A DNA stretch of 64,000 nt from a virus. The notes beneath the pieces are model-generated. The model made no database searches and had not been told where the DNA came from. It saw only the letters and a list, made by a program, of their open reading frames with translations. This document shows positions 17,990 to 64,000 of this stretch, piece by piece; position 1 is the first letter of the stretch; the number at the start of each line of letters is the position of its first letter. The stretch lies in UHGV virus genome UHGV-0021788. One strand, 5' to 3'. The translations under genes were made by a program, and so were the position numbers.

Positions 17990-18194
17990 TCCCTATATTA
18001 AGTGATTAGTATAGTAAATCCTTTGAATTGCTGGTAAATCCTAAAGCCTTATAAACTACAACATGATTAGAAATAATGAGTGTGAATGTTACGAAAGTAG
18101 AAAAAATTATAAGGATAACATATGGTTAAATCCTAAGTGTTATATACAATGGAAGCTCAGCAGGTAAGATTCTAAATTAAATTATTTTAAATAC

Positions 18195-18223
18195 TTGACT
18201 TTTAATAAGATAAATTGTATAAT
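18195..18223 (+). promoter_or_regulatory. Sigma-A-type promoter TTGACT-N17-TATAAT (TG-extended) driving the intron-encoded HEG.
   Basis: TTGACT 18195-18200, TGTATAAT 18216-18223, RBS GTGAGGTGA, ATG 18246. Confidence 0.65.
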
Positions 18224-18245
18224 ATAAGTAAAGTGAGGTGATAAA

Positions 18246-19160
18246 ATGGGAAGAAAGAAAACACATGAGGAATTTATGAAAGAGTTTTATGAAAAAAATC
18301 CTAATGCTAAAAATATAGAAATATTAGGAAAATATGAAGGTAGAAAAGTAAAAATTTTATGTATGTGTAAAATAGATAACTATAAATGGCATACAACTCC
18401 TAATGGATTATTGGGAAGTAAAAATATTAAACCAAATGGATGTCCGAAATGTGCTGGAAAAATAAAAAAAACACATAAACAATTTATAGAAGAAATGAAT
18501 GAAATAAATCCAAATATTAAAATATTGGGGCGTTACATAGATGCTAAAACTAAGATAGAATGTGAATGTAAAATAGATGGATATAAATGGGAAGTTGAAC
18601 CAACTAATTTGCTACAGAAAAGAGGATGTCCAAAATGTGCTAATAAAATACCTAGAGAACATGATGATTTTGTTAAAGAATTAAATAACATCAATCCTAA
18701 TATAAAAATAATAGGTAAATTTATATCTACTAGAACTAAAATAGAATGTGAATGTAAAATAGATGGATATAAATGGGAAGCTGAGCCAAGACATCTTTTA
18801 GGAAATCATGGATGTCCAAAATGTAATGATTCTATTGGAGAAAAAATAACTTATAATATATTAAATAAATTAAATATAAAAAATATAAGACAATACAAAT
18901 TTAAAGATTGTAAATTTTATAAATGTCTTCCTTTTGATTTTTATTTGCCACAATATAATTGTTGTATTGAAATTGATGGTAAGCAACATGAGAATATAGT
19001 CAAATGGTTTGGTGGGTTAGATGGTTTTATAGATAGAAAAATTAGAGATACGGTTAAAGATATATATTGTAAGAATAATGGAATAAAATTAATTAGAATT
19101 ACATATAAAGATATAAATGAAATAGAAAAAATAATTTGTCAAGAACTTAATTTAAATTAA
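18246..19160 (+). CDS. Intron-encoded homing endonuclease: three tandem CxxC...CPKC zinc-ribbon modules plus a C-terminal Vsr-like/DUF559 PD-(D/E)XK nuclease domain (I-Bth0305I-like).
   Basis: Repeats 'CECKIDGYKWE..LL...GCPKC' x3. C-terminal 'FDFYLPQYNCCIEIDGKQHE...IRDTVKDIYCKNNGIKLIRI'. Confidence 0.6.
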   Translation: MGRKKTHEEFMKEFYEKNPNAKNIEILGKYEGRKVKILCMCKIDNYKWHTTPNGLLGSKNIKPNGCPKCAGKIKKTHKQFIEEMNEINPNIKILGRYIDAKTKIECECKIDGYKWEVEPTNLLQKRGCPKCANKIPREHDDFVKELNNINPNIKIIGKFISTRTKIECECKIDGYKWEAEPRHLLGNHGCPKCNDSIGEKITYNILNKLNIKNIRQYKFKDCKFYKCLPFDFYLPQYNCCIEIDGKQHENIVKWFGGLDGFIDRKIRDTVKDIYCKNNGIKLIRITYKDINEIEKIICQELNLN

Positions 19161-19486
19161 TTTAATATGAATAAACTTCAACGACTAAGTATCCTAGTAG
19201 TCTAGGTAGTGGAGGATACCCTTATTGGGTAATGATATAGTCTGCTCTCATGGGAAACCATGAGCAGTTTTTATGTAAAAAAACGGATAGAATAGTAACG
19301 ATATTCTATTGAACATAAGGTGTTGAGGAATCACAAGCTACTAATGTTTGTTTCCAAAATATAAGTGAATGGGAAAAAGGTACTGATTTTGATTTTCATT
19401 TAAATACAGGCGACATTTCGCAAAATGCAAACAGAAGTTTTGAGTGGAGATACCACTATAAATATGCAGATGACCTAATAAGAACT

Positions 19487-20161
19487 ATGTGTCATCAAAT
19501 AACTTGTGGGAATAATGACTTAATAGATAAGAAATATTCAGATGCATTTACATGGTACATGACACCAGAAGATTATTTCTTACCAGACCAAATAGATAGT
19601 GGTTCAGGTGTTATGGTTAATAATCCTAATAAATGTACTTTTAATTCATGTCATAGTTTTGACTTAGGATATGTACATTTTGTTTGTTTAAATAGTAATA
19701 AAGATTATTCTATGTTTAATGAAAATGAAGGTGAAAAAATAGATGATTGGATACAAAGAGAATGTGCATGGTTAGATGCAGATTTAACTAGAGATGAATC
19801 TAATGCTAAAACAAGATGGGTAATATGTTATATGCATTACGCACCTTTTACAGTATCTAGACCTGACTGGATACAAAGATTTGTTCCTGTATTTGAAAAA
19901 CATAGAGTACATTTAGTATTATGTGGTCACAACCATACAAACTCAAGAAGTATTGTAGTTAGAAGTGGTTATGATGGAGACCCAAATAAAGCAAGCTATG
20001 ACCCTAAAGGTCAAAAAACAGCTGAAGAAGAAACAGCTTTAGGACATGGTACTATAAATCATAATGAAGATTTAAAAAATGGTACTCTTTACCTAATGAT
20101 TAATGCAACTGGATTCAAGAATACAGGTAAAGAAAGTATACAAAATCCTTATCCTTGGTAA
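19487..20161 (+). CDS. Exon 2 of the metallophosphoesterase gene. The ORF-track ATG is internal; the exon probably begins ~19320.
   Basis: Frame open upstream to 19299 with no RBS. Upstream in-frame 'GVEESQATNVCFQNISEWEKGTDFDFHLNTGDISQNAN' (PAP GDxxY-like motif). 'ITCGNND' (GNH[DE]-like). 'LVLCGHNH' (GHxH motif). Confidence 0.55.
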   Translation: MCHQITCGNNDLIDKKYSDAFTWYMTPEDYFLPDQIDSGSGVMVNNPNKCTFNSCHSFDLGYVHFVCLNSNKDYSMFNENEGEKIDDWIQRECAWLDADLTRDESNAKTRWVICYMHYAPFTVSRPDWIQRFVPVFEKHRVHLVLCGHNHTNSRSIVVRSGYDGDPNKASYDPKGQKTAEEETALGHGTINHNEDLKNGTLYLMINATGFKNTGKESIQNPYPW

Positions 20162-20332
20162 AAAAATATTGCCACTTTACATAGTAATATGTAATGACAA
20201 ACTCATTGAATTGCTGGGACGACCTTAGAGCCTTAATGCCACAATATAAGAGAAATCATTATATGAAGGTTTAAAAAGTTTAAGGATTGGTTAATCAGCA
20301 GGTAAGATTCTAAATTAAATTATTTTAAATAC

Positions 20333-20361
20333 TTGACTTTTAATAAGATAAATTGTATAAT
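20333..20361 (+). promoter_or_regulatory. Duplicate of the intron HEG promoter (TTGACT-N17-TATAAT).
   Basis: ~184-bp block 20296-20479 is ~97% identical to 18157-18340 (promoter, RBS, first ~30 codons). Confidence 0.6.
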
Positions 20362-20375
20362 ATAAGTAGAGTGAG

Positions 20376-21299
20376 GTGATAAATATGGGTAAAAAGAAAA
20401 CACATGAGGAATTTATGAAAGAGTTTTATGAAAAAAATCCTAATGCTAAAAATATAGAAATATTAGGAAAATATGAAGGAAACAATAAACCTATTAAATG
20501 TCGTTGCAGAATAGATGAATACGAATGGTATCCAAGACCTTGTCATTTATTGGGAAATAAAAATGCTAAACCTACTGGTTGTCCTAAGTGTAGTGGAAAA
20601 GCAAAAAGAACAAATGAAGAGTTTATTAAGGAAATATATATAATAAACCCTAATATAGAAATACTTAGTGAATATAGTGGAGTTAGTAATTTAATAGATT
20701 GTCGTTGTAAAATAGATGATTATGAGTGGTCATCAATTGCTGATAATTTATTACATGGACATGGTTGTCCTAAATGTGGAGGACAAATAAAAAAGGAACA
20801 TGAAGAGTTTGTAAAAGAAATGGAAGAAATAAATCCCAATATAGAAATACTTGGGGAATACAATGGAGTTCATGAATATATTTTATGTGGATGTAAAATA
20901 TGTAATCATGAATGGACAACTCGTCCTCATGAATTATTAAATGAATACGGATGTCCTTCTTGTAATATATCTCGAGGAGAATTTAAAATAAAAACTTTAT
21001 TAGAAAAATATCAAAAACAATATAAATATCAATATAAATTTAAAGATTGTAAATTTTATAATGAATTACCTTTTGATTTTTATTTACCTGATTATAATAT
21101 TGCAATAGAATATGATGGAGAACAGCATTATAAAATAATTAAACAATTTGGTGGAATAAATAGATTAATAGATAGTAAAATAAGGGATACTGTTAAAACT
21201 GAATATTGTAAAAATAATAACATAAAACTTATAAGAATACCTTATTGGAATTATAAAGATATAGAAAATATACTTATAAAAGAACTTAATTTAAAATAA
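20376..21299 (+). CDS. Intron-encoded homing endonuclease, paralogue of 18246..19160 (Zn-ribbon repeats + Vsr-like/DUF559 domain). The real start is probably ATG 20385.
   Basis: 'ELPFDFYLPDYNIAIEYDGEQHYK...IRDTVKTEYCKNNNIKLIRIPY'. N-terminal 30 aa identical to HEG 18246. Confidence 0.6.
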   Translation: MINMGKKKTHEEFMKEFYEKNPNAKNIEILGKYEGNNKPIKCRCRIDEYEWYPRPCHLLGNKNAKPTGCPKCSGKAKRTNEEFIKEIYIINPNIEILSEYSGVSNLIDCRCKIDDYEWSSIADNLLHGHGCPKCGGQIKKEHEEFVKEMEEINPNIEILGEYNGVHEYILCGCKICNHEWTTRPHELLNEYGCPSCNISRGEFKIKTLLEKYQKQYKYQYKFKDCKFYNELPFDFYLPDYNIAIEYDGEQHYKIIKQFGGINRLIDSKIRDTVKTEYCKNNNIKLIRIPYWNYKDIENILIKELNLK

Positions 21300-21477
21300 T
21301 TTAACATGAATAAACTTCAACGACTATCCTGTAATGGAGTAGGGTTCAAGCGAACTCGAAGTAGTGAGCATCTTAATAAAGATGAAGATATAGTCTAGTC
21401 TCATGGGAAACCATGAGCAGTTTTTGTGCGTAAAAACAAAACGGGTTAGGTGTAGCGAACCTAATTGAATATAACGG

Positions 21478-21691
21478 GTATGGATTAAGAACTTCACATC
21501 CAACACAACCAACTTATGCAACATTAACTATAGGTTGGGATAAGATAGAATATAAATGCTATAAGATAATGAACACATTAAGTAAAGATAGAAACGGAAA
21601 TACAATAGTAGTGCCTTATGGTAGTCAAACTAAAGAATTGTATGATAGTTGTACTCTTAATTGGAGAGCAAAAGGTCAAACACTAATATAG
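21478..21691 (+). CDS. Exon 3 (C-terminal ~70 aa) of the metallophosphoesterase gene.
   Basis: Frame open after TAA ~21446. 'NGYGLRTSHPTQPTYATLTIGWDKIEYKCYKI...NWRAKGQTLI*' resembles the PAP C-terminal beta-strand region. Stop TAG 21689-21691. Confidence 0.45.
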
Positions 21692-21704
21692 GTGGTGATA
21701 GTTT

Positions 21705-24380
21705 ATGCCTAATAGAATTTGGAGTGAAGAAAAAAAAGATTGGATAATAGTCGATGAAACAAATTTAGCTACAAATATAGAAGTAATGGATATCAAAGAG
21801 TACTATCATAAAAAGAAAACAGAAGAAGAAACAAAAGATGATGAATTTTTAAGTGTTGAAAAATGCTTAGAACAAATAGGGGATAAAATAAATAATGGTG
21901 ATATAGGTGCTATAGGTGAAATAAAAGATAAAGTACAAGATTTGGATGACAGAGTAACCTATATTGAAGAAAACGGTGGTGGTGGAGGAGGTGGCTCTTC
22001 CATGCCTACCGTTAAACTTCTTAGTGATAGTTATTATGCTATACCAACCGATGGAGAATTAAATATTTATTATAACTTTACTTCTCCAAATATAGGATTT
22101 GGTACAGCATTTATAAGTTTAGACTATGGAACAGCTGAACAGTTATCAGTTGCACAAGGTCGTAATTTTTATACTGTAAAAAACTTAGAAAAAGGTGAAC
22201 ATAGACTAGATATATATGTAACTGATATAACAGGTTTATTCTCGAATACAGTTACAGTAACAATAGTTGTTGGTGGACTTGAATTAACTTCTAATTTTGA
22301 CGATAGTACGGATTTATCCTTAGAGGATTATATTAGAATAAGATATGTTATCTCAACAATATCTTCTAAGCCAATTGAAGTGTCTATTGAAATAGATGGT
22401 AAACTAACAAAAGCAGAAGGTATAATTGGTCAAAATATATTGGAAGTTGGACAGTTTAGTTCATTAGGGGTTCATACAGTTAAAATATCAGCCGTCAGTG
22501 GTGATTTAGTATCAAACCAATTAGTATTTAATTTAGTTGTAGCCGATTCAGAAAATCTTTATGTATCTACTACTTTTCCTGATAATTATACTATACAAGT
22601 AGGTAAAAACCTACAAATTGATTATAGAAATAGTATGGTAAATCAAAATAGATTTATTACTCATATGCTTATAAATGGTACTGAAGTAGATACGGTAACA
22701 TCTTATTCAGGATATAACTATTGGAACGTTGGGTCTAATTTAGAGATAGGTTTATATACTTTAACATTATATTCTACTACATCCGATGGTGCATATACAT
22801 CAAATTATTTAACATGGGTAATAGATGTTGTTTCAGAAGACTATGTTCCCTTTAAGGTTGTAACAGATGGGTTATTATGTAATTTTGATGCTAATGGTAA
22901 TCAACAAACATCTTCTAGTAGAAACATATGGAAAGACGATAGTGGAAACGACGTTAAATGTGAATTGTTTAATTTCAACTATTCTACAAATGGTTGGATA
23001 GATAACAGTTTAGTATTTAATGGTAAAACATATGCTAAAATAGATTTTTCTCCTTTTAGTGATAATATCAAAAATGGTATGACAATTGATATGTTATTTA
23101 AAGTAAAAAATGTTGGTGATATAGACGGAAAAGTATTATGGTGTAAAAATCCAATTACACCTTACCAAGGTTTTTATATAAATACTTATGAGGCAAATTG
23201 TCGTTCTGCCAACTCAAGAATAGTTAGTAACCAATTTCAAGATGACACATGGACTAGAATAACATGGGTTATTAATAGAGAAGATTTGACAATGATAGCT
23301 TATGTAAATGGTATCATAACGAAACCTGTATATATAACAGATACAGAAAACTTTAGAATGGAAAAAGATATTTATCTAGGTGTATCATTTGACGAAGTAG
23401 ATAACAATTTAGATAATGATGGTAATCCAATACCTCACTATGCATCTTGTTCTATAAAAACATTTAGAATATATGATAGAGCATTAACTGATGAAGAAAT
23501 ATTACAAAATCATATTGCCGATATAAAAGATAAAGAAAAACAATTGGAAATAAGAGAAAAGAACTATGGTGATAGTACAATGCCTATCATAAAATTTGAA
23601 GGTAATGTAGAAGGTATGGATGGTAGTATCTATAAATTATTAACAATAGATTATAATGACCCATTAGACCCATCTAAACGTTTTAGACAAGAACAATGTA
23701 GAGTAAAATGGCAAGGTACTTCTTCACTAGAATATCCAGTAAAAAACTATACAATAGAACTTAGAAGTGGTGGTAACGTTTGGGAATATGCTCCTAAAGA
23801 CAATTGGCTACCAGAAAAAAGATATACTTTGAAGGCTTCGTTTATGGATAGTTCTACATATAATAACGTTGGTTCTTCTAAATTAATTTATGATTACTTT
23901 AGAAAATCTAATATGTTTTATCCACAAGAAATTAAAAATCCTAAAACTAGAGCAGTAATAGATGGTTTCCCAGTTAGACTTTATATTAATGGGGAATCAA
24001 AAGGTATATATATGTTCAATATAGATAGATATGCTGAAAACAATTATGGATTTTCTGGGGAATCATCAATTGTATCTTATGAAATAGCTGTCAACTCTGA
24101 AAGTGGTGCTGGTGCTTTCGCATCAGATGCTTGGTCAAGTATACGTTCTGAATTTGAAATGAGATATCATTATGCTGGAGATGAAAGTGTTGTATGTGAA
24201 ACTGTTATGGAAAATGGTGTACCAACTACTGTTTTAAAAGCAGGTTTTCATTCAGAATTACAAAATTTAGTTTCATGGGTATTAAATTCTACTATAGAAG
24301 AGTTTAGAAGTGAATTAAAAGAACATTTTGAATTAAACTTTTTAATAGATTATTATCTATGGGTTCTATGTTTGGGTTAA
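21705..24380 (+). CDS. Exon 1 (891 codons) of a giant CotH-kinase-like / BspA-LRR tail protein. The ORF-track stop at 24378-80 lies in the intron; the exon probably ends at 24377.
   Basis: RBS GGTGGTGATAG. CotH-family region 'MPIIKFEGNVEG...KRYTLKASFMDSSTYNNVGSSKLIYDYF...GFPVRLYINGESKGIYMFNIDRYAENNYGF' ending '..NFLIDYYLWVLCLG'. Confidence 0.55.
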   Translation: MPNRIWSEEKKDWIIVDETNLATNIEVMDIKEYYHKKKTEEETKDDEFLSVEKCLEQIGDKINNGDIGAIGEIKDKVQDLDDRVTYIEENGGGGGGGSSMPTVKLLSDSYYAIPTDGELNIYYNFTSPNIGFGTAFISLDYGTAEQLSVAQGRNFYTVKNLEKGEHRLDIYVTDITGLFSNTVTVTIVVGGLELTSNFDDSTDLSLEDYIRIRYVISTISSKPIEVSIEIDGKLTKAEGIIGQNILEVGQFSSLGVHTVKISAVSGDLVSNQLVFNLVVADSENLYVSTTFPDNYTIQVGKNLQIDYRNSMVNQNRFITHMLINGTEVDTVTSYSGYNYWNVGSNLEIGLYTLTLYSTTSDGAYTSNYLTWVIDVVSEDYVPFKVVTDGLLCNFDANGNQQTSSSRNIWKDDSGNDVKCELFNFNYSTNGWIDNSLVFNGKTYAKIDFSPFSDNIKNGMTIDMLFKVKNVGDIDGKVLWCKNPITPYQGFYINTYEANCRSANSRIVSNQFQDDTWTRITWVINREDLTMIAYVNGIITKPVYITDTENFRMEKDIYLGVSFDEVDNNLDNDGNPIPHYASCSIKTFRIYDRALTDEEILQNHIADIKDKEKQLEIREKNYGDSTMPIIKFEGNVEGMDGSIYKLLTIDYNDPLDPSKRFRQEQCRVKWQGTSSLEYPVKNYTIELRSGGNVWEYAPKDNWLPEKRYTLKASFMDSSTYNNVGSSKLIYDYFRKSNMFYPQEIKNPKTRAVIDGFPVRLYINGESKGIYMFNIDRYAENNYGFSGESSIVSYEIAVNSESGAGAFASDAWSSIRSEFEMRYHYAGDESVVCETVMENGVPTTVLKAGFHSELQNLVSWVLNSTIEEFRSELKEHFELNFLIDYYLWVLCLG

Positions 24381-24469
24381 TACAATGGCTCAAGTAAAAC
24401 TTTCTCTGATTAATGGCGAACACCCTAGTAGAAAAGGGCAACGCTCAAGAAGATTTATTTAACAATATT

Positions 24470-24498
24470 TTGACTTTTAATAAAATAAGTAGTATAAT
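24470..24498 (+). promoter_or_regulatory. Sigma-A-type promoter TTGACT-N17-TATAAT for the GIY-YIG HEG.
   Basis: TTGACT 24470-75, TATAAT 24493-98, RBS AAAGGGGTGA, ATG 24520. Confidence 0.6.
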
Positions 24499-24519
24499 AT
24501 AAATGAAAGGGGTGATACT

Positions 24520-25230
24520 ATGAGTGAAAATAAATATTATGTTTATGAATGGATTAGATTAGACACAAATGAACCATTTTATGTAGGTAAAGGTTGTGGA
24601 GATAGATGGAGGAATTTATATAGGGATTACAATCCTCGTTTTATGAATATAATAAATAAAGTACCAGTAGCAGTATCAATATTAATAAATAATTTAACAG
24701 AAAAGGAATCTTTTGATTTTGAATGTTATTATATATGGTTATATAAAGATATTATAGGATATGATATATGCAATATAAATGAAGGTGGGGAAGGTCAAAG
24801 TTTATGTGGTGAAGCTAATGGTTTTTATGGTAAACATCATTCAGAAGAAACTAAAAAATTATTAAGTGAACAACATAAAGGCATGACTTATTCTCAAGAG
24901 ACAAAAAATAAATTGAGTGCTATGAGAAAAGGTGAAGGGAACGCTATGTGGGGACGTAGAGGAGAATTATCTCCGCATTGGGGTAAAAAATATTCAGAAG
25001 AAAGAAAAAATAATATTAGTAAAGCAATGGGTACTTCTGTAAAGTGTATTGAATTAAATATAGAATTTAATAGTCTTAATAAAGCAGAAAAATATATGAT
25101 TAAAGAATATGATATTAAATTTTCTCATAAAACTTTAAAAGCTACGATAGAAAAAAGAAGAAAAAAAGATTGGTATGGAGAAATAGAAATTAATGGAGAA
25201 TTAATTAAACTTCATTGGGAATATTGTTAA
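24520..25230 (+). CDS. GIY-YIG homing endonuclease with NUMOD3-like repeats (I-TevI-like), intron-encoded.
   Basis: 'KYYVYEWIRLDTNEPFYVGKGCGDRWRNLY' (GIY...YIG...R). Repeats 'GKHHSEETKKLLSEQHKGMTYSQETKNKLSAMRKGEGN'. Confidence 0.75.
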   Translation: MSENKYYVYEWIRLDTNEPFYVGKGCGDRWRNLYRDYNPRFMNIINKVPVAVSILINNLTEKESFDFECYYIWLYKDIIGYDICNINEGGEGQSLCGEANGFYGKHHSEETKKLLSEQHKGMTYSQETKNKLSAMRKGEGNAMWGRRGELSPHWGKKYSEERKNNISKAMGTSVKCIELNIEFNSLNKAEKYMIKEYDIKFSHKTLKATIEKRRKKDWYGEIEINGELIKLHWEYC

Positions 25231-25428
25231 ATAAAATCACTTGCAACGACTGAGTGAGAAAGGCTTAAAGATTAATTCTTTAAGTAAGCAACAGTCTGAA
25301 CTTGCGAATATAATTTCTACAAAAAACAAATCGCAGAAGAGGGGTCATCGGTAATCAGACCGATTAAAGAAGAACCCCTCTCGCCAACTTAGGTTGGTCA
25401 GTAGCCGAAAGGTGAAAGTAACAGAATG

Positions 25429-25446
25429 CTAGTAGACAACTTGGGT
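25429..25446 (+). CDS. Putative 18-nt micro-exon 2 of the CotH/LRR gene (LVDNLG).
   Basis: Sits between the 3' end of intron a (...ACAGAATG) and a second td-like 5' splice context 'CTTGGGT|TTAATGATTTTGGCTCAAG'. Keeps the reading frame. Confidence 0.4.
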
Positions 25447-25693
25447 TTAATGATTTTGGCTCAAGTATAAAATTCTCTCTGATTAATGGCGAACACCCTA
25501 GTAGAAAAGGGCAACGCTCAGGAAGATTTATAAAATCACCTGCAACGACTGAGTGAGAGAACACTTATTTAAGTGAAGCAACAGTCTGAACTGCAAATAT
25601 AATTTCTACAATAACAAATTGCAGAAGGAAGTTGAAGTGCTTCCTCGCCAACTCAAGTTGGTCAGTAACCGAAAGGTGAAAGTAACAGAATTG
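25447..25693 (+). mobile_element. ORF-less group I intron 'b' (247 nt). It is intron a without the HEG cassette.
   Basis: 5' region near-identical to 24381-24460 (IGS GCTCAAG, 'CTCTGATTAATGGCGAACACCCTAGTAGAAAAGGGCAACGCTCA'). R 'CTGCAACGACTGAG' 25530-43. S 'CAACAGTCTGAAC' 25577-89. 3' '..AGTAACAGAATTG'. Confidence 0.6.
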
Positions 25694-25786
25694 AAAAATA
25701 TGGTTTTAACAACTTTCGGTATGAATGCTGAAGGTAACGTAATTTGGTATCCATCCTTTGACATAGGAGGATGTAAAACTCTCTTT
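25694..25786 (+). CDS. Putative 93-nt exon 3 of the CotH/LRR gene (KNMVLTTFGMNAEGNVIWYPSFDIGGCKTLF).
   Basis: In-frame with exons 1/2 and 4. Contains a CotH-family 'N..L....G.W..IPWDLD..G'-like motif (NVIWYPSFDIGG). Confidence 0.45.
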
Positions 25787-26003
25787 AATTGACTTGGAAG
25801 TCCTGAAGAGGACGACAGGGGGCAAGTTTAAATACAGCCTGAACGACTAAACAAGAGAGCATTATCATATTGATAATGATGTGATAGTCTGAACTCTAGT
25901 AATAACTTGTTTTAATGAAACTAGAGAAGGAAATCCGAAGTGTTTTCCTCGCCATAAAATATTATGGTCAGTAGCTTAGGAATAAGTGAAAGTAACAGAA
26001 TGG
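25787..26003 (+). mobile_element. Compact ORF-less group I intron 'c' (217 nt).
   Basis: Begins 'TAATTGACTTGG' (cf. td 'UAAUUGAGG'). IGS 'GAAGAG' pairs with exon 'CUCUUU'. R 'CCTGAACGACTAAAC' 25836-50. S 'GTGATAGTCTGAAC' 25890-903. 3' end '..GTGAAAGTAACAGAATGG' as in introns a and b. Confidence 0.55.
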
Positions 26004-29000
26004 TATGATGCAGACTCAGAGTTGGGTTTAACCAACGATGGTGAGTTAAGATACGGTTCAGGTATCGACACTTTAACAGATAATTTCAATACTTCTGATT
26101 CTAAATTATGGACTAAATTACTAGAAGCTTTCCCAGATGAAGTACAAGCAAGATATATCTATATGAGAAGTAATGGATTTATGACTTATGAAAATATTAT
26201 AAAATATTATGAAAATATAGCAGATACAATTGGTCAAACATTCTATAATGAAGATGCAAGACTTAAATATATTAATGAAGATAATAAATCATTTATTTAT
26301 ATGTGTAATGGTTCAAGACTTGAACATACAAAAAGATGGTTAAGCGAACGTATTGTATATATGGATAGTAAATTTAACTATGGTGATTTCTTATTATCTT
26401 CTACTATACGTTCAAATGTTTCCGGTGAGGTATCATTAAAAGTAAAAACATATTCACCTCAATGGGTAGAAATATCTTTCTCAGATAGTGCTACAGGTAC
26501 AACAAGACAATGGTGTAGTAAAGATAAATGGTATACATTTATAAATACCATTGAAAATGCCGTCGACAACAATATCACCATTAGAGGTGTAACTAATATA
26601 ATGTATTTACAAGGATTAGAAAATTTAAATGTATCTTCTTTACTTGTATCAAATGCAAAAGGTTTATGTGAAATTGATATTCATGGTTCTAAACGTATTC
26701 AAAGATTGGAACTAGGTAACAATATCATGTTACAAAAACTTAATTGTAAAGATTGTATTAATTTAGGTATTGATGATAACTATAAAGTTGTTAACTTGGA
26801 AAAATGTATCAACTTAAAATATCTTGATTTATCTAATACTATGATAGGTACACTTCAATTAAATAAAGATGGTGGTGCATTAGAATATTTAGATTTATCT
26901 GAAACAGAATTAACTTATTTAACTTGTAACCATCAAGAATATTTACCTGAAATAAAATTAGATGGTTGTAAAAATCTATCATCTGTTACTATTAATGGTT
27001 GTAATGCATTAACAAGATTGAGTTTACCTAATACTAAATTAGCTGAATTTACTGTAACAGATTGTAATAGTTTAAATTACCTTGATATATCATATACTGG
27101 TTATTTAGTAAAATTAGATTTAACAGGTTGTAGTAGTTTAACTACTTTAATAATGTCAGGTATAGCAAATAATAAATTTACTGAATTAGATGCGAGAACA
27201 TTAACAAAATTAACAACATTAGATGTGTCTAAATGTTATTTCTTAAATAATATAAGATTTGCTAATGGATATAATGCTTTAACATCTGTAAACTTCCAAC
27301 AAAGTGGGATTAAGACTTTACAGTTTGGAAATAATGAAAAACCTCCTTATTTAGATTTATCTCCATTTAATTTAACAGAAGTTAATTTCTATAACTGTAC
27401 TGAAATAGAATATATTAAAAATATAAAATTATATGCTACAAAATCCATAGAACCTTTTTATAATTGTGTTAATTTACACACTATAGAAGGTACTATAAGT
27501 TTAACTGATGATTTAGGAAGAAGTTTTTATAATTGTAAAAAACTAGTTAATTTACCTACTTTAGATTTAAGTAGAGTTAAAACAGCTTCGGATTCCTTTA
27601 TGCATTGTGAGTCTTTAACTTATGACCAATTACTAGAAATTTTAGGTAAGATGAATAATTGTCAAAGTTTTTATAGAACTTTCCAAAACTGTTTAGCTAT
27701 GGAACATGACGGTTGGGAAAAAGCTTTATTCGATAAGATACCAAAAGCAACTTATTTTTATTGGACATTCTCAGATACTCCAATAAGCGGACAATTAGAG
27801 CAAGGAATCTTTGATAGTTTATTAGATTTACAAACTGTAGATGGATTATTTAGCGGTGGTAAGGCAAAAGGTTATATTCCAGCCAATCTATTCAAATATA
27901 ATACAAAATTACAAAATCTTTGGAATCTATTTAATGGATGTAAAGAATTAGAAACTGCTACTAATATAGTAAACATGTTTACCACTACAGTAGATTTAAG
28001 AGGTATAGAGGGATTATTTAGTGGTTGTACTAATGCTTTTATGAAACTAAGTGATACATGGTTTGCAAATTGTCCAGAGCTACAAAATATGGATTATGCT
28101 TTTGCAAATTGTACAAACTTAATTGGTTCTATAGCTGAAAATCCTCATATGATAAAAAATAAATCTAAATTAACAACAGCAGAACATACCTTCCTTAATT
28201 GTACAGGCATAAGTGGTGATTTACCTGATGATTATTTTGTTGGGTGTACTGCTTTACAAGAAATACAAGGACATTTTCAAGGATGTACTGGTCTAACAGG
28301 AACTCCTAAAACTGAATCATGGATAGATTGTGAAAATATAACTAATGCTTCATATTTATATGCAGGATGTACTGGTTTAGGTGGTATAGCAGGTGCTACT
28401 CAAGAAATACCTAAAGATTTCTATAAAAGAAAATATAGACTTATAGATATATCTGGTATGTGGCAAGGTTGTAATCAACTACAATTTTCTCTAATGCCAT
28501 TAAAAGAAGATAAGTTAGGTGAGGATGGAGCTGTTATAGAAAAAGGGGACGACCCTTGGTTTGTTGATTGTAGACAGTTAGCGAAAATAAATTATCTATT
28601 TGATGGTTGTAGTAATTTATCATCTGTAATACCTTCTAGGTTATTTGAAGTTTGGGATGAAAAAGGCGAAGTAATGGATACACTTATAACAGAAGCTAAA
28701 GCGGTATTTAAAAATTGTCAATTACTTACAGATGAAATACCAGAAAATCTATTTGAAAAATTTATTAAAGTTAGAGATTTAACTGAATTTTTCTATCAAT
28801 GTAGAAGTTTAACTGGTGGTATTCCTGATACATTATTTTCTAATTGTTATTCTTTAGTTTATGCTAATAGAATGTTTATGCGTTGTGGTAAATTAGGAAA
28901 ATATGCAGACCAAGTAACAGAAGAAGAGCCATATTTCTGTAATGAAGAACTATTTTGGAACTGTCCTAACCTATTGGAAATATCTCAATTATTCCATATG

Positions 29001-29396
29001 TATGATGGATGGGGAACTTCTCTAAGAGGAGACATACCTCCATTGTTATTTAGAGCTAATCCTAAATTACAAAATATAAATAATGCCTTTGCTGGTTGTA
29101 GTCTTTTAACTGGTGGGTTGGATGGGCAACTATTTGTTAGAAATGCTAAATTAAAAACTGCTAGAGAAACTTTCCACGGTTGCTCAGGTTTAAATGGAGA
29201 AATGAGTGGAGCGTTATTTACCTCTACTAATAATCCACTTTTAACAGATTTCTATCAAACCTTTCAAAATTGTAAAAATATACAAGGTACTGCACCTTCA
29301 TTATGGACACAATTCTCTAATGCAAATGGTGGAGGATGTTTTAATGGATGTACTAAATTAAGTAATTATGCAGATATACCTTCACAATGGAAATAA
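25986..29396 (+). CDS. Exon 4 of the CotH/LRR gene (true exon start ~26004): BspA-type leucine-rich repeats (LRR_5) and Cys-containing repeats. The GTG 'start' of the ORF track is intron sequence.
   Basis: 'gtgaaagtaacag' before nt 26004 is present in all three intron 3' ends. 'LDLSNTMIGTLQLN', repeated 'F.NC..L' BspA-type LRRs. Terminator after the stop. Confidence 0.55.
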   Translation: MKVTEWYDADSELGLTNDGELRYGSGIDTLTDNFNTSDSKLWTKLLEAFPDEVQARYIYMRSNGFMTYENIIKYYENIADTIGQTFYNEDARLKYINEDNKSFIYMCNGSRLEHTKRWLSERIVYMDSKFNYGDFLLSSTIRSNVSGEVSLKVKTYSPQWVEISFSDSATGTTRQWCSKDKWYTFINTIENAVDNNITIRGVTNIMYLQGLENLNVSSLLVSNAKGLCEIDIHGSKRIQRLELGNNIMLQKLNCKDCINLGIDDNYKVVNLEKCINLKYLDLSNTMIGTLQLNKDGGALEYLDLSETELTYLTCNHQEYLPEIKLDGCKNLSSVTINGCNALTRLSLPNTKLAEFTVTDCNSLNYLDISYTGYLVKLDLTGCSSLTTLIMSGIANNKFTELDARTLTKLTTLDVSKCYFLNNIRFANGYNALTSVNFQQSGIKTLQFGNNEKPPYLDLSPFNLTEVNFYNCTEIEYIKNIKLYATKSIEPFYNCVNLHTIEGTISLTDDLGRSFYNCKKLVNLPTLDLSRVKTASDSFMHCESLTYDQLLEILGKMNNCQSFYRTFQNCLAMEHDGWEKALFDKIPKATYFYWTFSDTPISGQLEQGIFDSLLDLQTVDGLFSGGKAKGYIPANLFKYNTKLQNLWNLFNGCKELETATNIVNMFTTTVDLRGIEGLFSGCTNAFMKLSDTWFANCPELQNMDYAFANCTNLIGSIAENPHMIKNKSKLTTAEHTFLNCTGISGDLPDDYFVGCTALQEIQGHFQGCTGLTGTPKTESWIDCENITNASYLYAGCTGLGGIAGATQEIPKDFYKRKYRLIDISGMWQGCNQLQFSLMPLKEDKLGEDGAVIEKGDDPWFVDCRQLAKINYLFDGCSNLSSVIPSRLFEVWDEKGEVMDTLITEAKAVFKNCQLLTDEIPENLFEKFIKVRDLTEFFYQCRSLTGGIPDTLFSNCYSLVYANRMFMRCGKLGKYADQVTEEEPYFCNEELFWNCPNLLEISQLFHMYDGWGTSLRGDIPPLLFRANPKLQNINNAFAGCSLLTGGLDGQLFVRNAKLKTARETFHGCSGLNGEMSGALFTSTNNPLLTDFYQTFQNCKNIQGTAPSLWTQFSNANGGGCFNGCTKLSNYADIPSQWK

Positions 29397-57529: not shown

Positions 57530-58780
57530 TTATATAAAAAATATACTATTATCTTTATCAGCACAAATTATTTTAGTAGTTTTATTTGATTTTCTAAGTT
57601 CTTCTTCCATCTTATCTCTAAATTTATATTTACTATCATCACTATGATGTATAACAATTAAATTAGTATTAATACCTTTCATCATTTTGATTATTTCTTC
57701 TCCTTGTATATGAGAAGACCATGTATTATATCTTATAACTTTAGCTTTCTTTTTAAATGACATATTTTCAATTTTAACTTCTTTAGTATTATCTTTTAAT
57801 AATAATCCTCCTACTGTCGTTGGAGCACAATAGCCAATTATCATTATAGTATAATTACTATCTTCTATATTTGCTTTTAAATGATTCAATATTCTACCTA
57901 TATTACACATACCAGCAGATGATATTACAATTTTTTGTTGTTCTTTATTAAGTGCTAAATTCATAGATGATTCAAAATCTTTTACAAAATGAAGTTTTTC
58001 CCATGATAATATTTTTTCAAACATATCTTTATCTTCTTTGTTTAATATTTGTTTATAAACATCATTGATTTCCAAAGAAAGTTTACCATCTAAGAATATA
58101 GGAGTTTTAAAATTTGGGTCATTAGAAAAAGTATTATATAAGTAATATAATAAATCTTGAGTTCTAGCTTGAGCAAAAGCTGGTATTAAAATTGAATGAC
58201 CTTGTTTTAATTCGTTGATTATATCATCTTTCATTTTCTTTCTTTCTTTTTCGATATCTTTTGCATTAAATCCTCTTGATAAATCTGAATAAGTTGCTTC
58301 TGTTATTACTAAATTAGCATTTGATATAGTTTTAGTTTTTTTACGGAATGGTTGTTGATTATTGAAACTACCTGTATCTCCACTATAATATATTTTTTTT
58401 GTAACTCCACTTGGCATTTTAAAGAATAATTCTATTGAAGTTGCTCCTACTATATGGTTATTTGGCAAAAGTCTAAAGCTAACATATTCATTTAACTCAT
58501 GTATAACATCTTCTTCATAAGTAGAAGTTTTTGATAACATTCTATATACATCGCTTTCAGTATAAAGAGGTTCTACCTTATATCCTTGATTACTCATTTG
58601 TCTACAATTTCTTTGTAATATATAAGCACCATCTATCAATAAAGGTTCAGATAATTCTTTATTCTCATAACCCATAATAAATTTATCTACATTATCTACT
58701 ATAGCTGGTAGATTTCCTATATGGTCTAGTGATTTCAAAGATGTGAATGAGATACAAAACAAGCTTTTATTTGACCACAT
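57530..58780 (-). pseudogene. C-terminal ~95% of an MBL-fold beta-CASP nuclease, frame-disrupted relative to ORF 58735..59436.
   Basis: Begins within motif II '...DHIGNLP'. beta-CASP motifs 'YSGDTG', 'ITEATY', 'WSSHIQGEE', 'VIHHSDD'. Confidence 0.5.
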
Positions 58781-59436
58781 TCACAAACTTTTTCAACCAC
58801 CCCCTTATTAACTACATATTCTTCTCTTAAAGCACCATTCATTTGAACCATACCACATTCAATAAGAACTTTTTCATAGTCTCCTTCTTTTGTTGGATAT
58901 GATAAGAGTATAGAAGTTCCAACAACTCCATTATGGCTTTCGCCTACGAATTCAACTATTACTTTATTTTTATTTTTCTTACTTATAATATATGGATTCT
59001 TTTTCTTCTTTTTCTTTTTCTTGATTACATTGAGATTTTCTTTTCTGCAATCCAAAAAATCACCATTTATAAATTCTATTTTATTATCATTTCCTAGTAT
59101 ATAATTTTGTAAAGTTGTATTTTTGCCTAACACATCTCCAATAATACAAGAATGTTTTTTATTCCATCTTACATTTTTACATGTTTTTACATCATCTAAA
59201 TCTATTAATACTCTTTCTTCAAGTTCTTCTTGAAATAAAGTATCATATAATACAATTTCAGCATAATCTTTATGTATTATTATTTCATTATTGTCAAATT
59301 CTGTTACAGGACTATCTGATATACAAAAACCATATTTCCTATATTCATCCCAATGTTTTTTACAAAGTCCATTTTTATTTTTTTTGCTTAATAATTTTCC
59401 ACATTGGCTACAGTGTTTTTTATTATCTTTATCCAT
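58735..59436 (-). pseudogene. N-terminal part of the same nuclease: Zn-ribbon, poly-Lys linker and MBL motifs I-II, ending 'ACFVSHSHL*'.
   Basis: 'CSQCGKLLSKKNKNGLC'. 'KKKKKKKK'. 'VEFVGESHNGVVGTSILL'. The HxHxDH motif is split by an 11-nt segment 'tgaaatcacta' (58754-58764). Confidence 0.5.
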
Positions 59437-60557: not shown

Positions 60558-62145
60558 TTATTTATTTGCTTTTCTATATTCATATTCTTCTTTATTTAAT
60601 TCTTCTACTTCTTCTTCATTAAGTAAATGATATTCATCACACCATATTTCAAACTCTCCATTTTGTACCCATTTTGTTTTAGTTATTGTATTTCCATCTT
60701 TGTCTATTGTTTCAACTTCTTTTTTTTCTTTTTTTGCCTTTTGAAACATATGGTATACATTGATTACACTAAATGCTTTAAATGGTTGTGCTTCATAAAT
60801 TCCTTCACCAACTTTTATTTCTATGTTTTTTCCAGTACTTATATTAAAAATCCATGCTTTTTTATTCTTAAATTTGGTTATAACATCAATAACGATACAA
60901 GTTGATGAATCATAATCTTCAAAATAATAATTACATTCTCCAGTCATTTCAAGATTAATTTTAACCTTATCTATTGATGGCATTTCGTTATCTTCTATAT
61001 TCAACATTAATTCATTACATAATTCTAATGCTTTTTCTACTTTATATTGTTTATATTTATCTTCTTTACTTTTTTCAGTTGCATATTTTTCTATTATTTC
61101 TTTAGGATATGGTAGGTCAGCTTTATTAAATGATACTTCACCTTTCTTAGATTTTAATTTTTTACTCATTATTTTTTCATATAAATCTATAATATCTAAT
61201 AATTTTTGTGATTTACCAAATTCATCGAAGAAATCTATTGCTATTAATATATTAAGTTGTCTTGAGTTTATAGATGTTTTATCATTTAAATCAATAAGTA
61301 AATCCATAAAACTATTATATTTATTATCTTTTAACATATATAATTCTTGTGATACTTGTTCATTCATATATTTTATACTAGCCATACCTTTATATATAGA
61401 ATTACTTTCTTTATCCATAAAATATTCAGCTTTAGAATATCTAAATTTAGGTGGTAATAATTTTATATCAAAATAACTTAATTCTTTTATTAGTCTATTT
61501 GTTCTAGTTGAATCATCGGAATAAATAGATAGGGCAACTGTATAATATTCAAGAGGATAATGTGATTTTAAAAATGCTCCATACAGACTATCATAGGCAT
61601 AAGAAAGTGAATGTGAAGCATTGAATGAATATTTTGAAGCATCATTAACTACTTGCCATGTTTCTTCAAATCCATCAATTGAACCAACTTTATCTATCCA
61701 ACCTTTTTTTAATTTTTTTTCTAACTCTATTAATTCTTTTTCTTTAAATTTTTTCTTTGATATTTTTTTAATAATTCCATATGTTTCAGGCTCAGGAATA
61801 CCTAACCATATTAAATATTTCATAATAGATTCTTGATACATCAAATAATGATAACTATCTTCTAACAAATTATCCAATTCTTTTACACCTGTTGTATATG
61901 GTTTTCTTTCTATAAAATTATCTAATAAAGAAGCAAATCCTGGTCTAATTGAAGCAACAAACGCACTCATTTCAGCTACACTAGAAACTTTATATCTTGA
62001 TGCTAAATTAGTTGCAAAATCTGAATCAGATTGATTTATTGTACAAGTTATTTTATCTTCATATATTTTAAATGTTTTTTCATCTAACATTTTTTCTAAT
62101 TCTTTAATAGTCGGTATTTTAATATTAGCTAATTCACAAGTTTTT
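60558..62145 (-). CDS. dnaE: 3' exon of the split dnaE-type DNA polymerase III alpha gene. The ORF track starts at internal ATG 62090.
   Basis: 'SKYSFNASHSLSYAYDSLYGAFLKSHYPLEYYTVAL' (DnaE 'SFNKSHA..YA..Y.TAYLK.HYP' motif). Frame open upstream of the ATG to ~62150, no RBS. Confidence 0.55.
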
Positions 62146-62515
62146 CTTATTAATGTCCAAACTGTAACCGCAAGATACGTTAATACCGTTCCTTTCGGAA
62201 TACTTTAACACCCATTTAAGGGTCGGACTAGACTATACCTTTATCTTCGACATTACTCGTTAAGATATGCCTATTATAGTCGTTGAAGGTTTCCCATTTT
62301 AAAGGGATTTCCCTGCTGATTATCCATTCATTCGCCCTTAGCGCCTTTTACAAGGCTTTTATTTCAGCTTAGGTAATCCTTATAATTTTTTCTGCTTTCG
62401 CAACCATCAAGCTTAATGTCACCATTTACTTTGTGGTTTATAAGGCTTTAGGAACTCCCAGCAATTTAAGGCATCATAATCTACATAATTTCTTATATAG
62501 ACGACTATTAAATTA
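62146..62515 (-). mobile_element. ORF-less group I intron in dnaE, same family as the phosphoesterase-gene introns. Splice sites approximate.
   Basis: On the - strand: P 'AAATTGCTGGGAG' (rc of 62456-68), Q 'AATCAGCAGG' (rc of ~62312-21), R 'CCTTCAACGACTAT' (rc of 62277-90), S 'GGTATAGTCTAGTCC' (rc of 62226-40), 3' end '..TTTGGACATTAATAAG'. Confidence 0.6.
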
Positions 62516-64000
62516 ATCATTCTTTAGATATTTATAAACATCACAATTATAACCATCTAAATTACAACATATTCCTTCTTTAGTTTTTATTAAACCAATT
62601 TCTTCTGAAACATTTTTATCATATAATAACATTGAACAAGGTGATTCTGATATACTTTCTACTACTCCTTTAAATACTTTTGAATCTTTTATTATTTTTC
62701 CCCAATATTCATCATTTTCATATTGTTCTAAATTTTTAGCTATTTCATCATATTTACTAACATGCATATCATTTGCCTTACACCATAGTCTAAAAGCAGA
62801 TGAATCTTGTAAAGGTTTATATGATAAAATCCAAGCACAATTTTCTTCGCCTAATAAATCTTTAGTTGCTTGTATAAATACTGAACGGTCTTCTGTATTT
62901 AAATCTACATCAGGCAATGAACGTGTACCTAATATACGTTCTATACTCATAAATCTAGTTGGATACAATGGAACTGGTGCAGACAATCTATCTATTTCTG
63001 TTAAACCTAATAATTTATTTATAATAAAACTTACAGCTGAATTATGAACTATCATATTATTAAGTAAATAACTATGCTCATTTTCAACTTCTATATCATA
63101 TACTGTGGTTTTTTGTTTAGGTAATATAATGATTTCCTTAATAGGAAGATAATAGTAATTATTATCCTCGAAAGTTCTTTCATTTTTTTTCTGTGAATAA
63201 TTAGAATTTTTATTTAATCTTAATTTATAAGATTCTTTACATAAATACCCTTCTTTCATTTTATGTTCTTTTCTTACGCTTAAACTATTTACTCCTTCAT
63301 CCGTCATTAAACATAATAATTTATATGCGTTTATTAAAGATTTTGAAGTATTATCGAAATTGATTCTATATTCACAAAAGCTTCCATCTGATAATCTTAA
63401 TCCTTTTACTATACCTAATAAATTTTCTTTTGATTGATTAAACCATTTTTCATTAAATATTTTATCTTTTCCTTTTTTAGATTCAAATAATTCCTGTTTA
63501 ACAAAATTACAAAATACTGTAGAATTAATATATAGTTGACTTAATTTTTTAGTTTTACTTACATTTTCATATATAGATTTATTTAATTTAGATGCTATAT
63601 TATAAAATATTTCTCTATTATATTTATCTTTTTCAGTAGTATTGTTTATGGCTAATCCAACACTGGTTTTTTTAGAAGTAAATCCGTCGCCATACATTAA
63701 TCCTATAAATATATTAAATTCTTTATCTATTTCAATATATCTTTCTAATTTTGAAAATTGTTTAGATTTAACATATTTAGAATATTCTTCTTGGGTATTA
63801 AAAGGTATATAATCCATTAAAGCTTTATATTTATCTTTTTTCCTATTAAAACAATTTTTTTTCATATTTGCAAAATTTTCTACTAATGACTTACCAACAC
63901 CTATTTTTCTTGCAACATCACTAGGAGAATATTTATAAATAGTATTAGTTTTTTCATATATATATTTATCATCAAAATCAAATCCGTTGATATTATAATC
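62516..64000 (-). CDS. dnaE: 5' exon segment of dnaE, 5'-partial at the window edge. Contains the C-terminal part of an intein and the downstream extein.
   Basis: Extein 'SAVSFIINKLLGLTEIDRLSAPVPLYPTRFMSIERILGTRSLPDVDLNTEDR' (pol III alpha core). Frame open to nt 64000. Confidence 0.55.
63041..64000 (-). mobile_element. Intein with a LAGLIDADG homing-endonuclease domain inside dnaE. The N-terminal splice junction lies beyond the window.
   Basis: LAGLIDADG-like 'IFIGLMYGDGF' and 'LGIVKGLRLSDGSF'. Intein C-terminus 'YDIEVENEHSYLLNNMIVHN|S' (His-Asn + Ser+1 at 63038-63043). Confidence 0.6.

Follow-up and report, generated by a model that had tools for sequence, protein, structure and literature searches.

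A group I intron and a LAGLIDADG intein predicted in the replicative DNA polymerase gene of a human gut phage

How a replicative DNA polymerase might be made from a gene that is interrupted twice is the question raised by the dnaE locus of UHGV virus genome UHGV-0021788, a phage of the human gut of about 200 kb, which is analysed here as a window of 64,000 nucleotides (nt). The gene lies on the minus strand and runs past the window edge at 64000. The original prediction held that the frame of a DnaE-type pol III alpha stops at 62513 and resumes in a frame that has no ribosome-binding site and contains the C-terminal part of DnaE, that the gap is a group I intron without an open reading frame (ORF) and with a likeness to introns of a phosphoesterase gene, that a LAGLIDADG intein ending in ...IVHN/S lies upstream (a slash marks a junction throughout), and that the replicase needs both RNA splicing and protein splicing. 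It is highly probable that the locus is one family-C (DnaE-type) replicative DNA polymerase gene, which has been invaded by two independent selfish elements, a group I intron and an intein (coordinates are given in Table 1).

The boundaries of the intron follow from a protein alignment and from an empty site. The frame of exon 1 ends in ...CDVYKYLKND, directly followed by a TAA, and that of exon 2 begins with the Tyr codon TAT at 62177 (YLAVTVWTLIRK...) and stops at 60558-60560. In Clostridioides phage AR1086-1 the DnaE is uninterrupted and aligns gap-free over this site, with D529 matching the last residue of exon 1 and Y530 the first residue of exon 2. Furthermore, an intron-less but intein-bearing allele (L009) is identical to the window over 60+60 flanking nt and reads ...AAGAATGAT/TATCTTGCG.... 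Both lines of evidence are independent of RNA models and place the intron at 62178-62515, with the 5' splice site after GAU (62516), an in-frame UAA as its first three bases and a terminal G at 62178. The gap had been put at 370 nt from 62146, which misplaces the 3' boundary by 32 nt: the intron measures 338 nt, and bases 62146-62177 belong to exon 2.

A scan of 61900-62750 (851 nt) with Rfam gives a match to RF00028 over the full model (1-253) at 65.3 bits, compared with a gathering score of 50 (E 3.4e-16). The intron holds no ORF of at least 40 amino acids (aa) on either strand, and its G+C content is about 35-37% as compared to 21-27% around it. Over 149 nt, its 5' half and the plus strand of the window at 17986-18131 are 74.5% identical (E 9e-19), which bears out the proposed likeness to the phosphoesterase-gene introns. 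Scans of the whole 64-kb window at the gathering and E-value thresholds reported no group I intron, and a 4-kb scan of 17800-21800 gave no Rfam match. Because the 851-nt scan scored 65.3 bits, the whole-window misses are a speed-filter effect; in this AT-rich sequence full 64-kb scans overlook all group I introns while scans of about 1 kb recover them, and other windows of the same phage group probably conceal introns from long scans likewise.

The RNA structure was examined in an alignment of the window intron with five copies at the same dnaE site, taken from alleles with DnaE proteins that are 49-100% identical, and was written with the P3/P7 pseudoknot. Across the six introns 97.2% of the cells pair, and compensatory changes are found in 29 of the 90 pairs, as opposed to 1-7 in controls with partners slid by one to three columns, and none of 500 shuffles reaches the observed value. 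Covariation supports P2, P3 (the pseudoknot), P4, P5, the P5 extension, P8, P9 and P9.1, and P1, P6 and P7 show no variation. At the 5' splice site the last exon base, U, pairs with the guide UAGUC in P1 as a U·G wobble (columns 9-20), and this wobble is kept in all six introns together with the terminal ...CG/UAUCU. P5 carries an extension of about 125 nt, which consists of a GAAA-capped hairpin and an A-rich segment. Of the other features that bear on the structural subgroup (IA-IE), P2 and P9.1 are present and P7.1/P7.2 were not found between P7 and P3'. RNAalifold paired GAUGC with bases around the 3' splice site, which was rejected as an artefact of barring pseudoknots, and the covarying P3 pairing was used instead.

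The same region could be read as a split polymerase, in which two ORFs are translated apart, their products associate non-covalently, and the intervening RNA is a relic or has another role. Gene callers do divide the gene into products of 991 aa and 510 aa, the second from an ATG at 62090, which is the first ATG of exon 2. However, a start at this ATG would lose 29 conserved codons and has no Shine-Dalgarno sequence, whereas most neighbouring minus-strand genes have one of the AAGGAG type, and the break separates the Asp of the KxD motif from the residue after it, inside a single continuous palm strand. Moreover, the gap RNA scores above the group I threshold with covarying helices, and intron-less alleles with identical flanks form one continuous ORF. 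Promoter-like sites in the gap are no commoner than in shuffles, and the gap holds no terminator on the sense strand, the sole terminator-like hairpin being on the opposite strand. Taken with the intron-less alleles, these signals make a split, unspliced polymerase very unlikely, and a single gene with an ORF-less group I intron is preferred.

The upstream part of the gene was taken from three metagenome contigs (L002, L003 and L004, from three independent ENA assemblies), which were found by exact look-up of the exon-2 ORF, reach further upstream and are 99.97-100% identical to the window across 3848 common bases. Exon 1 starts about 1488 nt past the window edge (virtual coordinate 65488), and its complete product of 991 aa (L002:3238-6213) is made up of a 385-aa N-extein ending in ...LLTKTGRG, a 431-aa intein and the 175-codon part of the C-extein. 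The latter aligns without gaps to residues 355-529 of AR1086-1 DnaE at 74% identity, and exon 2 aligns to residues 530-1018 at 56% identity, its first aligned residue coming directly after D529. Pfam finds PHP, Intein_splicing and DNA_pol3_alpha on exon 1 and DNA_pol3_finger and HHH_6 on exon 2; PF02811, PF07733, PF17657 and PF14579 each score above the cut-off, and their order (PHP, palm or pol3_alpha, fingers, helix-hairpin-helix) is that of DnaE. The protein also aligns with structures of Pol III alpha from Taq and E. coli (Taq 2hpi, E 2e-42). The NCBIfam cut-offs were not reached when exon 1, including the intein, was scanned alone (TIGR00594, 142 vs 434; PRK06826, 141 vs 1260); these scores, which come from exon 1 only, fit a divergent phage clade. 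The stop of the pol III alpha frame, the resumption of the frame in exon 2 without a Shine-Dalgarno sequence and the DnaE assignment (from domain order and the alignment to Taq alpha motifs) thus stand as originally proposed, as does an ORF-less group I intron in view of the RF00028 score, the covariation and the intron-less alleles.

By DnaE, the nearest cultured relatives are two large phages of Clostridioides, phiCD211 and AR1086-1, at about 78% identity, followed by the Clostridium botulinum phage c-st (64%). As the large Clostridioides phages and c-st are nearest, the host is probably a clostridial gut bacterium. In addition, the PHP domain of this DnaE clade contains a cysteine-rich insert of about 30 aa (CSEVCVKLTQENNEYTKHNCEKCQYKDVCDKSYKG; L002 ~3409-3525, DnaE residues ~58-96), which may serve as a zinc-binding module and is missing in the homologue of AR1086-1.

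The second interruption, which starts at virtual coordinate 64333, has the blocks of an intein at both ends. Absence of an N-terminal splicing motif upstream, which was to refute the original prediction, is not borne out: L002-L004 contain GRG/CFTEDALVHT, which is block A with Cys1, followed by TLDH as block B. At the other end, blocks F/G read VYDIEVENEHSYLLNNMIVHN/S (63041-63103 / 63040), and the junction is ...NNMIVHN/SAVSF at 63041/63040. All residues that are invariant in 19 homologous inteins are kept (C1, T66, H69, D216, G217, D316, G317, H430 and N431), and both intein profiles are matched above their cut-offs (PF14890, 60-62 bits vs 35.8; TIGR01443, 20.1 vs 15.6). Intein-less DnaE proteins (P0006, P0009, P0011, P0013 and AR1086-1) contain an uninterrupted KTGRG/SA(V/P)SF, and therefore the insertion is in-frame and precise. 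Intein-less alleles read LTKTGRG/SAVSF at the junction, and the intein-less DNA site of L010 (...ACTGGAAGAGGT/TCAGCTGTAAGT..., also given as ...TTGACTAAGACTGGAAGAGGT/TCAGCTGTAAGTTTTATTATA...) is a candidate target of the endonuclease.

An AlphaFold (AF2) model was made from the 98% identical intein of P0001 as a stand-in for the window allele, with a mean predicted local distance difference test (pLDDT) score of 91.9. Its top Foldseek matches are inteins that contain a homing endonuclease (HEN), namely TliVMA (E 1.2e-16), PI-TkoII and PI-SceI, and the match to I-DmoI (E ~5e-6, target template-modelling (TM) score 0.55-0.63) supports a duplicated alpha-beta-beta-alpha-beta-beta-alpha endonuclease fold. 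PI-SceI, TliVMA/PhoVMA and PI-TkoII (E 1e-16 to 1e-11 for the HEN-inteins) share with the present intein the HINT domain and the inserted two-motif LAGLIDADG fold, I-DmoI sharing the endonuclease part, but identities are 12-15% and the host proteins and target sites differ. An extra helical region of the modelled intein (residues ~137-192) may be a DNA-recognition region. Judged from its motifs and fold, the element is a class-1 intein with a HINT domain and a two-motif LAGLIDADG homing endonuclease, for which splicing and cleavage are predicted. The LAGLIDADG intein with its ...IVHN/S end, as first proposed from the part within the window, is accordingly confirmed by blocks A, B, F and G, the two profiles and the fold matches of the P0001 model. 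Some related DnaE proteins (P0055, 1676 aa) have a further intein, whose endonuclease is HNH-like, at the fingers motif YSFN/C...SN/CSHSLSYAYD, a site that is vacant in the window (61587-61631, minus strand).

Compared with Taq alpha (2hpi), the intein lies inside GPGRG/SAAGS, LPDVDLN corresponds to SMPDIDTDF, and the intron comes directly behind the Asp codon of LLKMD/FLGL, the motifs GRGS, PD(I/V)D and K(M/N)D all being matched in the alignment. From published Pol III alpha structures, we take the GRGS loop to bind the phosphates of the deoxynucleoside triphosphate (dNTP) and PDxD plus KxD to provide the three catalytic aspartates. The GRG/S and LLKMD/ alignments indicate that both elements occupy active-site motifs, with 525 nt of mature coding sequence between them. 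Homing elements usually insert at active-site motifs.

Expression of such a gene would proceed from a single pre-mRNA, in which the 338-nt intron would fold into P1-P9.1 and splice itself out by guanosine-initiated, two-step transesterification. RNA splicing would join ...AAU GAU to UAU CUU... and restore ...KYLKND-YLAVTVW..., the expected ligated exon junction being AAGAAUGAU/UAUCUUGCG, that is GTTTATAAATATCTAAAGAATGATTATCTTGCGGTTACAGTTTGG, whereas on unspliced RNA translation would halt at the UAA that opens the intron. The spliced mRNA would encode a 1530-aa precursor, from which the 431-aa class-1 intein (Cys1 ... His-Asn, Ser+1) would excise with ligation of the exteins, rebuilding the G-R-G-S loop in a polymerase of 1099 aa. 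Because of the UAA, the lack of a Shine-Dalgarno sequence before exon 2 and the splitting of the dNTP-binding loop by the intein, production of the replicase would require both RNA splicing and protein splicing, which upholds the claim of the original prediction to this effect. The excised intein, as a presumed LAGLIDADG endonuclease, would cut intein-less alleles during co-infection and copy itself into them.

Several points weigh against this reading. That ribozyme, intein and endonuclease are active is inferred from conservation alone, and the first 111 codons of the intein lie outside the window and were taken from metagenome contigs that are identical over a 3.8-kb overlap. The covariation of the intron, which comes from six sequences in three diverged lineages, is good but not deep. 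Among the Pfam LAGLIDADG profiles, PF14528, PF00961 and PF03161 give no match to the intein even at E values up to 5; since no Pfam LAGLIDADG profile matches it directly, the LAGLIDADG assignment rests on motifs and fold, and a homologue (P0089) has a precomputed match to PF14528. Finally, the ratios of nonsynonymous to synonymous substitution rates (dN/dS) against the 98% identical L009 allele, which suggest constraint on the intein (0.12 for the whole intein and 0.105 for its endonuclease part, with 0.08 for the N-extein), are based on 29 substitutions only.

A further alternative is a decaying gene, in which one or both elements are splicing-dead, this dnaE allele is a pseudogene and another polymerase replicates the phage. 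An intron whose endonuclease gene was lost or is lacking would indeed represent one stage of the degeneration cycle. Against decay, however, the catalytic residues and the invariant intein residues are all kept, the core pairs of the ribozyme are intact and upheld by compensatory change, intein and extein alike have a dN/dS of about 0.1, the exons have neither stops nor frameshifts, and the same allele is found on many independent contigs of about 200 kb. A decaying gene is thus very improbable, and a functional gene is the likelier reading.

The alleles of this gene were surveyed by a protein search with the 991-aa product, and the states that follow are those among alleles at least 94% identical. 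One protein of 1530 aa (P0001) has the intein and no intron, and five of 1099-1101 aa (P0006, with 1099 aa, P0008, P0010, P0012 and P0013) have neither. The 560-aa exon-1 products that end in KYLKND (P0009, 74 members; P0011, 18 members) represent alleles with the intron and no intein. L016 combines the intein with an ORF-bearing intron, and L017 has an ORF-less intron and no intein. At the DNA level these alleles contain exact vacant sites for the intein and for the intron, and near-identical element-less alleles therefore fix both insertion points to the base. As close alleles show all combinations, linkage of the two elements is not evident. Among 80 IMG/VR loci with a related DnaE, the intron is at its site in 4, the intein is present in 3, and both occur only in L016; this protein-anchored survey superseded an exact-pattern search of IMG/VR with the 5' core of the intron, which gave 3 loci only. 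Intein and intron are also found together in two diverged lineages (P0007, 58% identity; P0087, 49%).

Such a polymorphic population could favour chimeric assembly, and the window might in principle be an assembly chimera of an intein-bearing and an intron-bearing allele. However, L002, L003 and L004 independently show the intein together with the ORF-less intron in nearly identical sequence, and further 991-aa members exist in Logan, NCBI and IMG, so that a chimera is scarcely credible. The cluster of the window product has mostly the 991-aa form among its listed members, on many independent contigs that reach about 200 kb. Among these members is an NCBI nr protein from a Caudoviricetes metagenome-assembled genome, which IMG labels 'intein/homing endonuclease'. 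The genuine co-occurrence of both elements in one allele is thus the reading followed here.

The same intron also exists in a larger form. In L005, L016, L018, L036 and L012 it has a P6 insert of about 840 nt with a LAGLIDADG ORF of 286 aa (277 aa in L012), and the copy in L005 (L005:5861-6721) matches PF14528 with an E value of 5e-7. In these ORF-bearing siblings the short P6a hairpin of the window and of L017 is replaced by another stem (AAUAUGUUU...AAACAUAUU). A simple deletion from the ORF-bearing intron was considered as the origin of the ORF-less form, but the P6a hairpin has no clear homology to the ends of the insert. Most likely, the window intron either lost an endonuclease gene or never received one.

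How an ORF-less intron might spread is a related question. The intein enzyme could cut an intein-less allele 525 bp upstream of the intron site, and co-conversion could then bring in the ORF-less intron; alternatively, the endonuclease of an ORF-bearing sibling could act in trans during co-infection. Spread by either route is a tentative and rather unlikely proposal. If true, such hitch-hiking would amount to trans-homing of an intron driven by an intein.

The combination of an intron and an intein in one gene has a precedent in bnrdE of SPβ, which encodes the large subunit of ribonucleotide reductase (RNR) in a Bacillus subtilis prophage (Lazarevic et al. 1998, as cited in PMC8270828) and was the subject of the commentary 'Lightning strikes twice' (Derbyshire & Belfort 1998, as cited in PMC3888941). 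Both bnrdE and the present dnaE are DNA-metabolism genes in phages of low-GC Gram-positive hosts, with RNA and protein splicing at conserved motifs. In contrast to dnaE, bnrdE encodes RNR and not a family-C polymerase, homology between the elements is not shown, and no set of alleles in all states is described for it.

Homologues of each element are also known separately. A homologue of the intein, 35.8% identical across all 431 aa (E 4e-57), occurs in the DnaE of Lactococcus phage 949 / P1048 (ORF116, HM029250) at the identical site, LTKTGRG/CFEET...VVHN/SAPSFY, but that intein has 376 aa as opposed to 431 and there is no intron at KYLKND/LL. The phage 949 record annotates a 'DNA polymerase III alpha subunit' only, and the intein is unmarked. 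Regarding the intron, an intergenic stretch among split RNR ORFs in Enterococcus Kochikohdavirus is 74% identical at the nucleotide level over 87% of the window intron, and the family extends to Herelleviridae and other Firmicutes phages, including Staphylococcus Twort-like phages, with weaker matches in 201 phage records. Unlike the dnaE copy, these lie in other genes (in the RNR region, or beside a tail tube gene), and the intron site of dnaE is uninterrupted in each of 58 deposited genomes of phages whose DnaE is related.

Pol III alpha is among the commonest intein hosts, with several insertion points in its catalytic domains, according to Novikova et al. 2016 (PMC4760082). In the same paper, the hot spot of bacterial DnaE inteins, including the cyanobacterial split ones, is in the fingers, and site 'a' inteins are split, whereas the present intein is contiguous and lies in the GRG/S loop of the palm. 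In crAss-like phages of the gut, as many as 14 introns and 3 inteins can occur (PMC7886860). A literature search of incomplete coverage did not turn up a group I intron in dnaE, which leaves novelty unproven.

The dnaE elements are a known kind of selfish-element insertion with a standard mechanism, and no new mechanism is revealed. For annotation, the locus matters since gene callers split the polymerase into pieces of 991 and 510 aa, where the true product would be the 1099-aa enzyme, and in public records these fragments carry the name 'DNA polymerase III alpha' or else 'intein/homing endonuclease'. With this locus, the family-C polymerase very probably joins the phage genes that carry a group I intron. 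The more useful result is the series of alleles from human-gut metagenomes, with the intein present or absent and the intron absent, ORF-less or ORF-bearing, which provides a natural system for the homing cycle and for the interplay of two neighbouring selfish elements.

Table 1. Features of the dnaE locus in the window, with positions counted from the first letter of the 64,000-nt stretch
Feature	Position	Strand	Remarks
dnaE exon 1, part within the window	62516..64000	minus	frame open from 64000 to TAA at 62513-62515
C-extein part of exon 1 (175 codons), palm segment	62516..63040	minus	LPDVDLN motif at 62897-62917
dnaE exon 2 (539 codons + stop): fingers, helix-hairpin-helix, C-terminal region	60558..62177	minus	PF17657, PF14579
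Predicted intein, C-terminal 320 of 431 codons	63041..64000	minus	LAGLIDADG domain and blocks F/G, end ...MIVHN
Ser+1 codon TCA, first C-extein residue, predicted splicing nucleophile	63038..63040	minus	S of polymerase GRGS
LAGLIDADG motif 1, FIGLMYGDGF	63680..63709	minus	Y214, D216, G217 invariant in 19 homologous inteins
LAGLIDADG motif 2, VKGLRLSDGS	63380..63409	minus	D316, G317 invariant in 19 homologous inteins
Group I intron, 338 nt, without ORF	62178..62515	minus	RF00028
P1: 5'-GAU/UA-3' (62518-62514) with internal guide 5'-UAGUC-3' (62507-62503)	62503..62518	minus	paired in 6/6 aligned introns
P6a hairpin (UCCCUUUAAAAUGGGA)	62292..62307	minus	site of the ~840-nt insert in sibling introns (L005, L016, L018, L036, L012)
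Catalytic core	62231..62281	minus	P7, P3 3' strand, P8
P7	62275-62281 with 62231-62237	minus	invariant
P3 3' strand	62267-62272 with 62469-62474	minus	pseudoknot; three pair types at two positions
P8	62243-62266	minus	5 compensatory pairs

Other genes of the window are also interrupted. On the plus strand, a metallophosphoesterase gene (16703-21704) is apparently interrupted by two group-I-like introns, which belong to the family of the dnaE intron. Each has a P6 ORF (18246-19160 and 20376-21299) with treble-clef zinc-finger/CapR/PvuRts1I-like domains, and each ORF is preceded, inside the intron, by an identical promoter-like TTGACT-N17-TATAAT and the ribosome-binding site GAGGTGAT. Further along the same strand, the stretch 24381-25985 between ORFs 21705-24380 and 25986-29396 apparently holds three tandem group-I-like units of a different subtype, which reach only 28.8 and 23 bits with RF00028. 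Their cores are at ~24388 plus 25230-25440, at 25455-25695 and at 25700-26000, and the first unit contains a NUMOD3 endonuclease ORF (24520-25230).

On the minus strand, a gene for a beta-CASP protein of the metallo-beta-lactamase fold is broken within its HxHxDH motif at 58724-58740, between ORFs 58735-59436 and 57530-58780. The break reads cat tca cat CTT [TGA AAT CA CTA] GAC CAT, and skipping 11 nt gives FVSHSHLDHIGNLP, which is gap-free against the uninterrupted homologue in L059/L061 (FVCHAHQDHLGNIP). Because a Leu codon is followed by the stop and a second Leu codon stands just before the resumed frame, the arrangement resembles a short translational bypass of the gene-60 type; it could instead reflect a -1 frameshift adding LKSL, an enzyme made in two pieces, or a pseudogene. 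Three other assemblies (L015, L016 and L017) have the same 11 nt.

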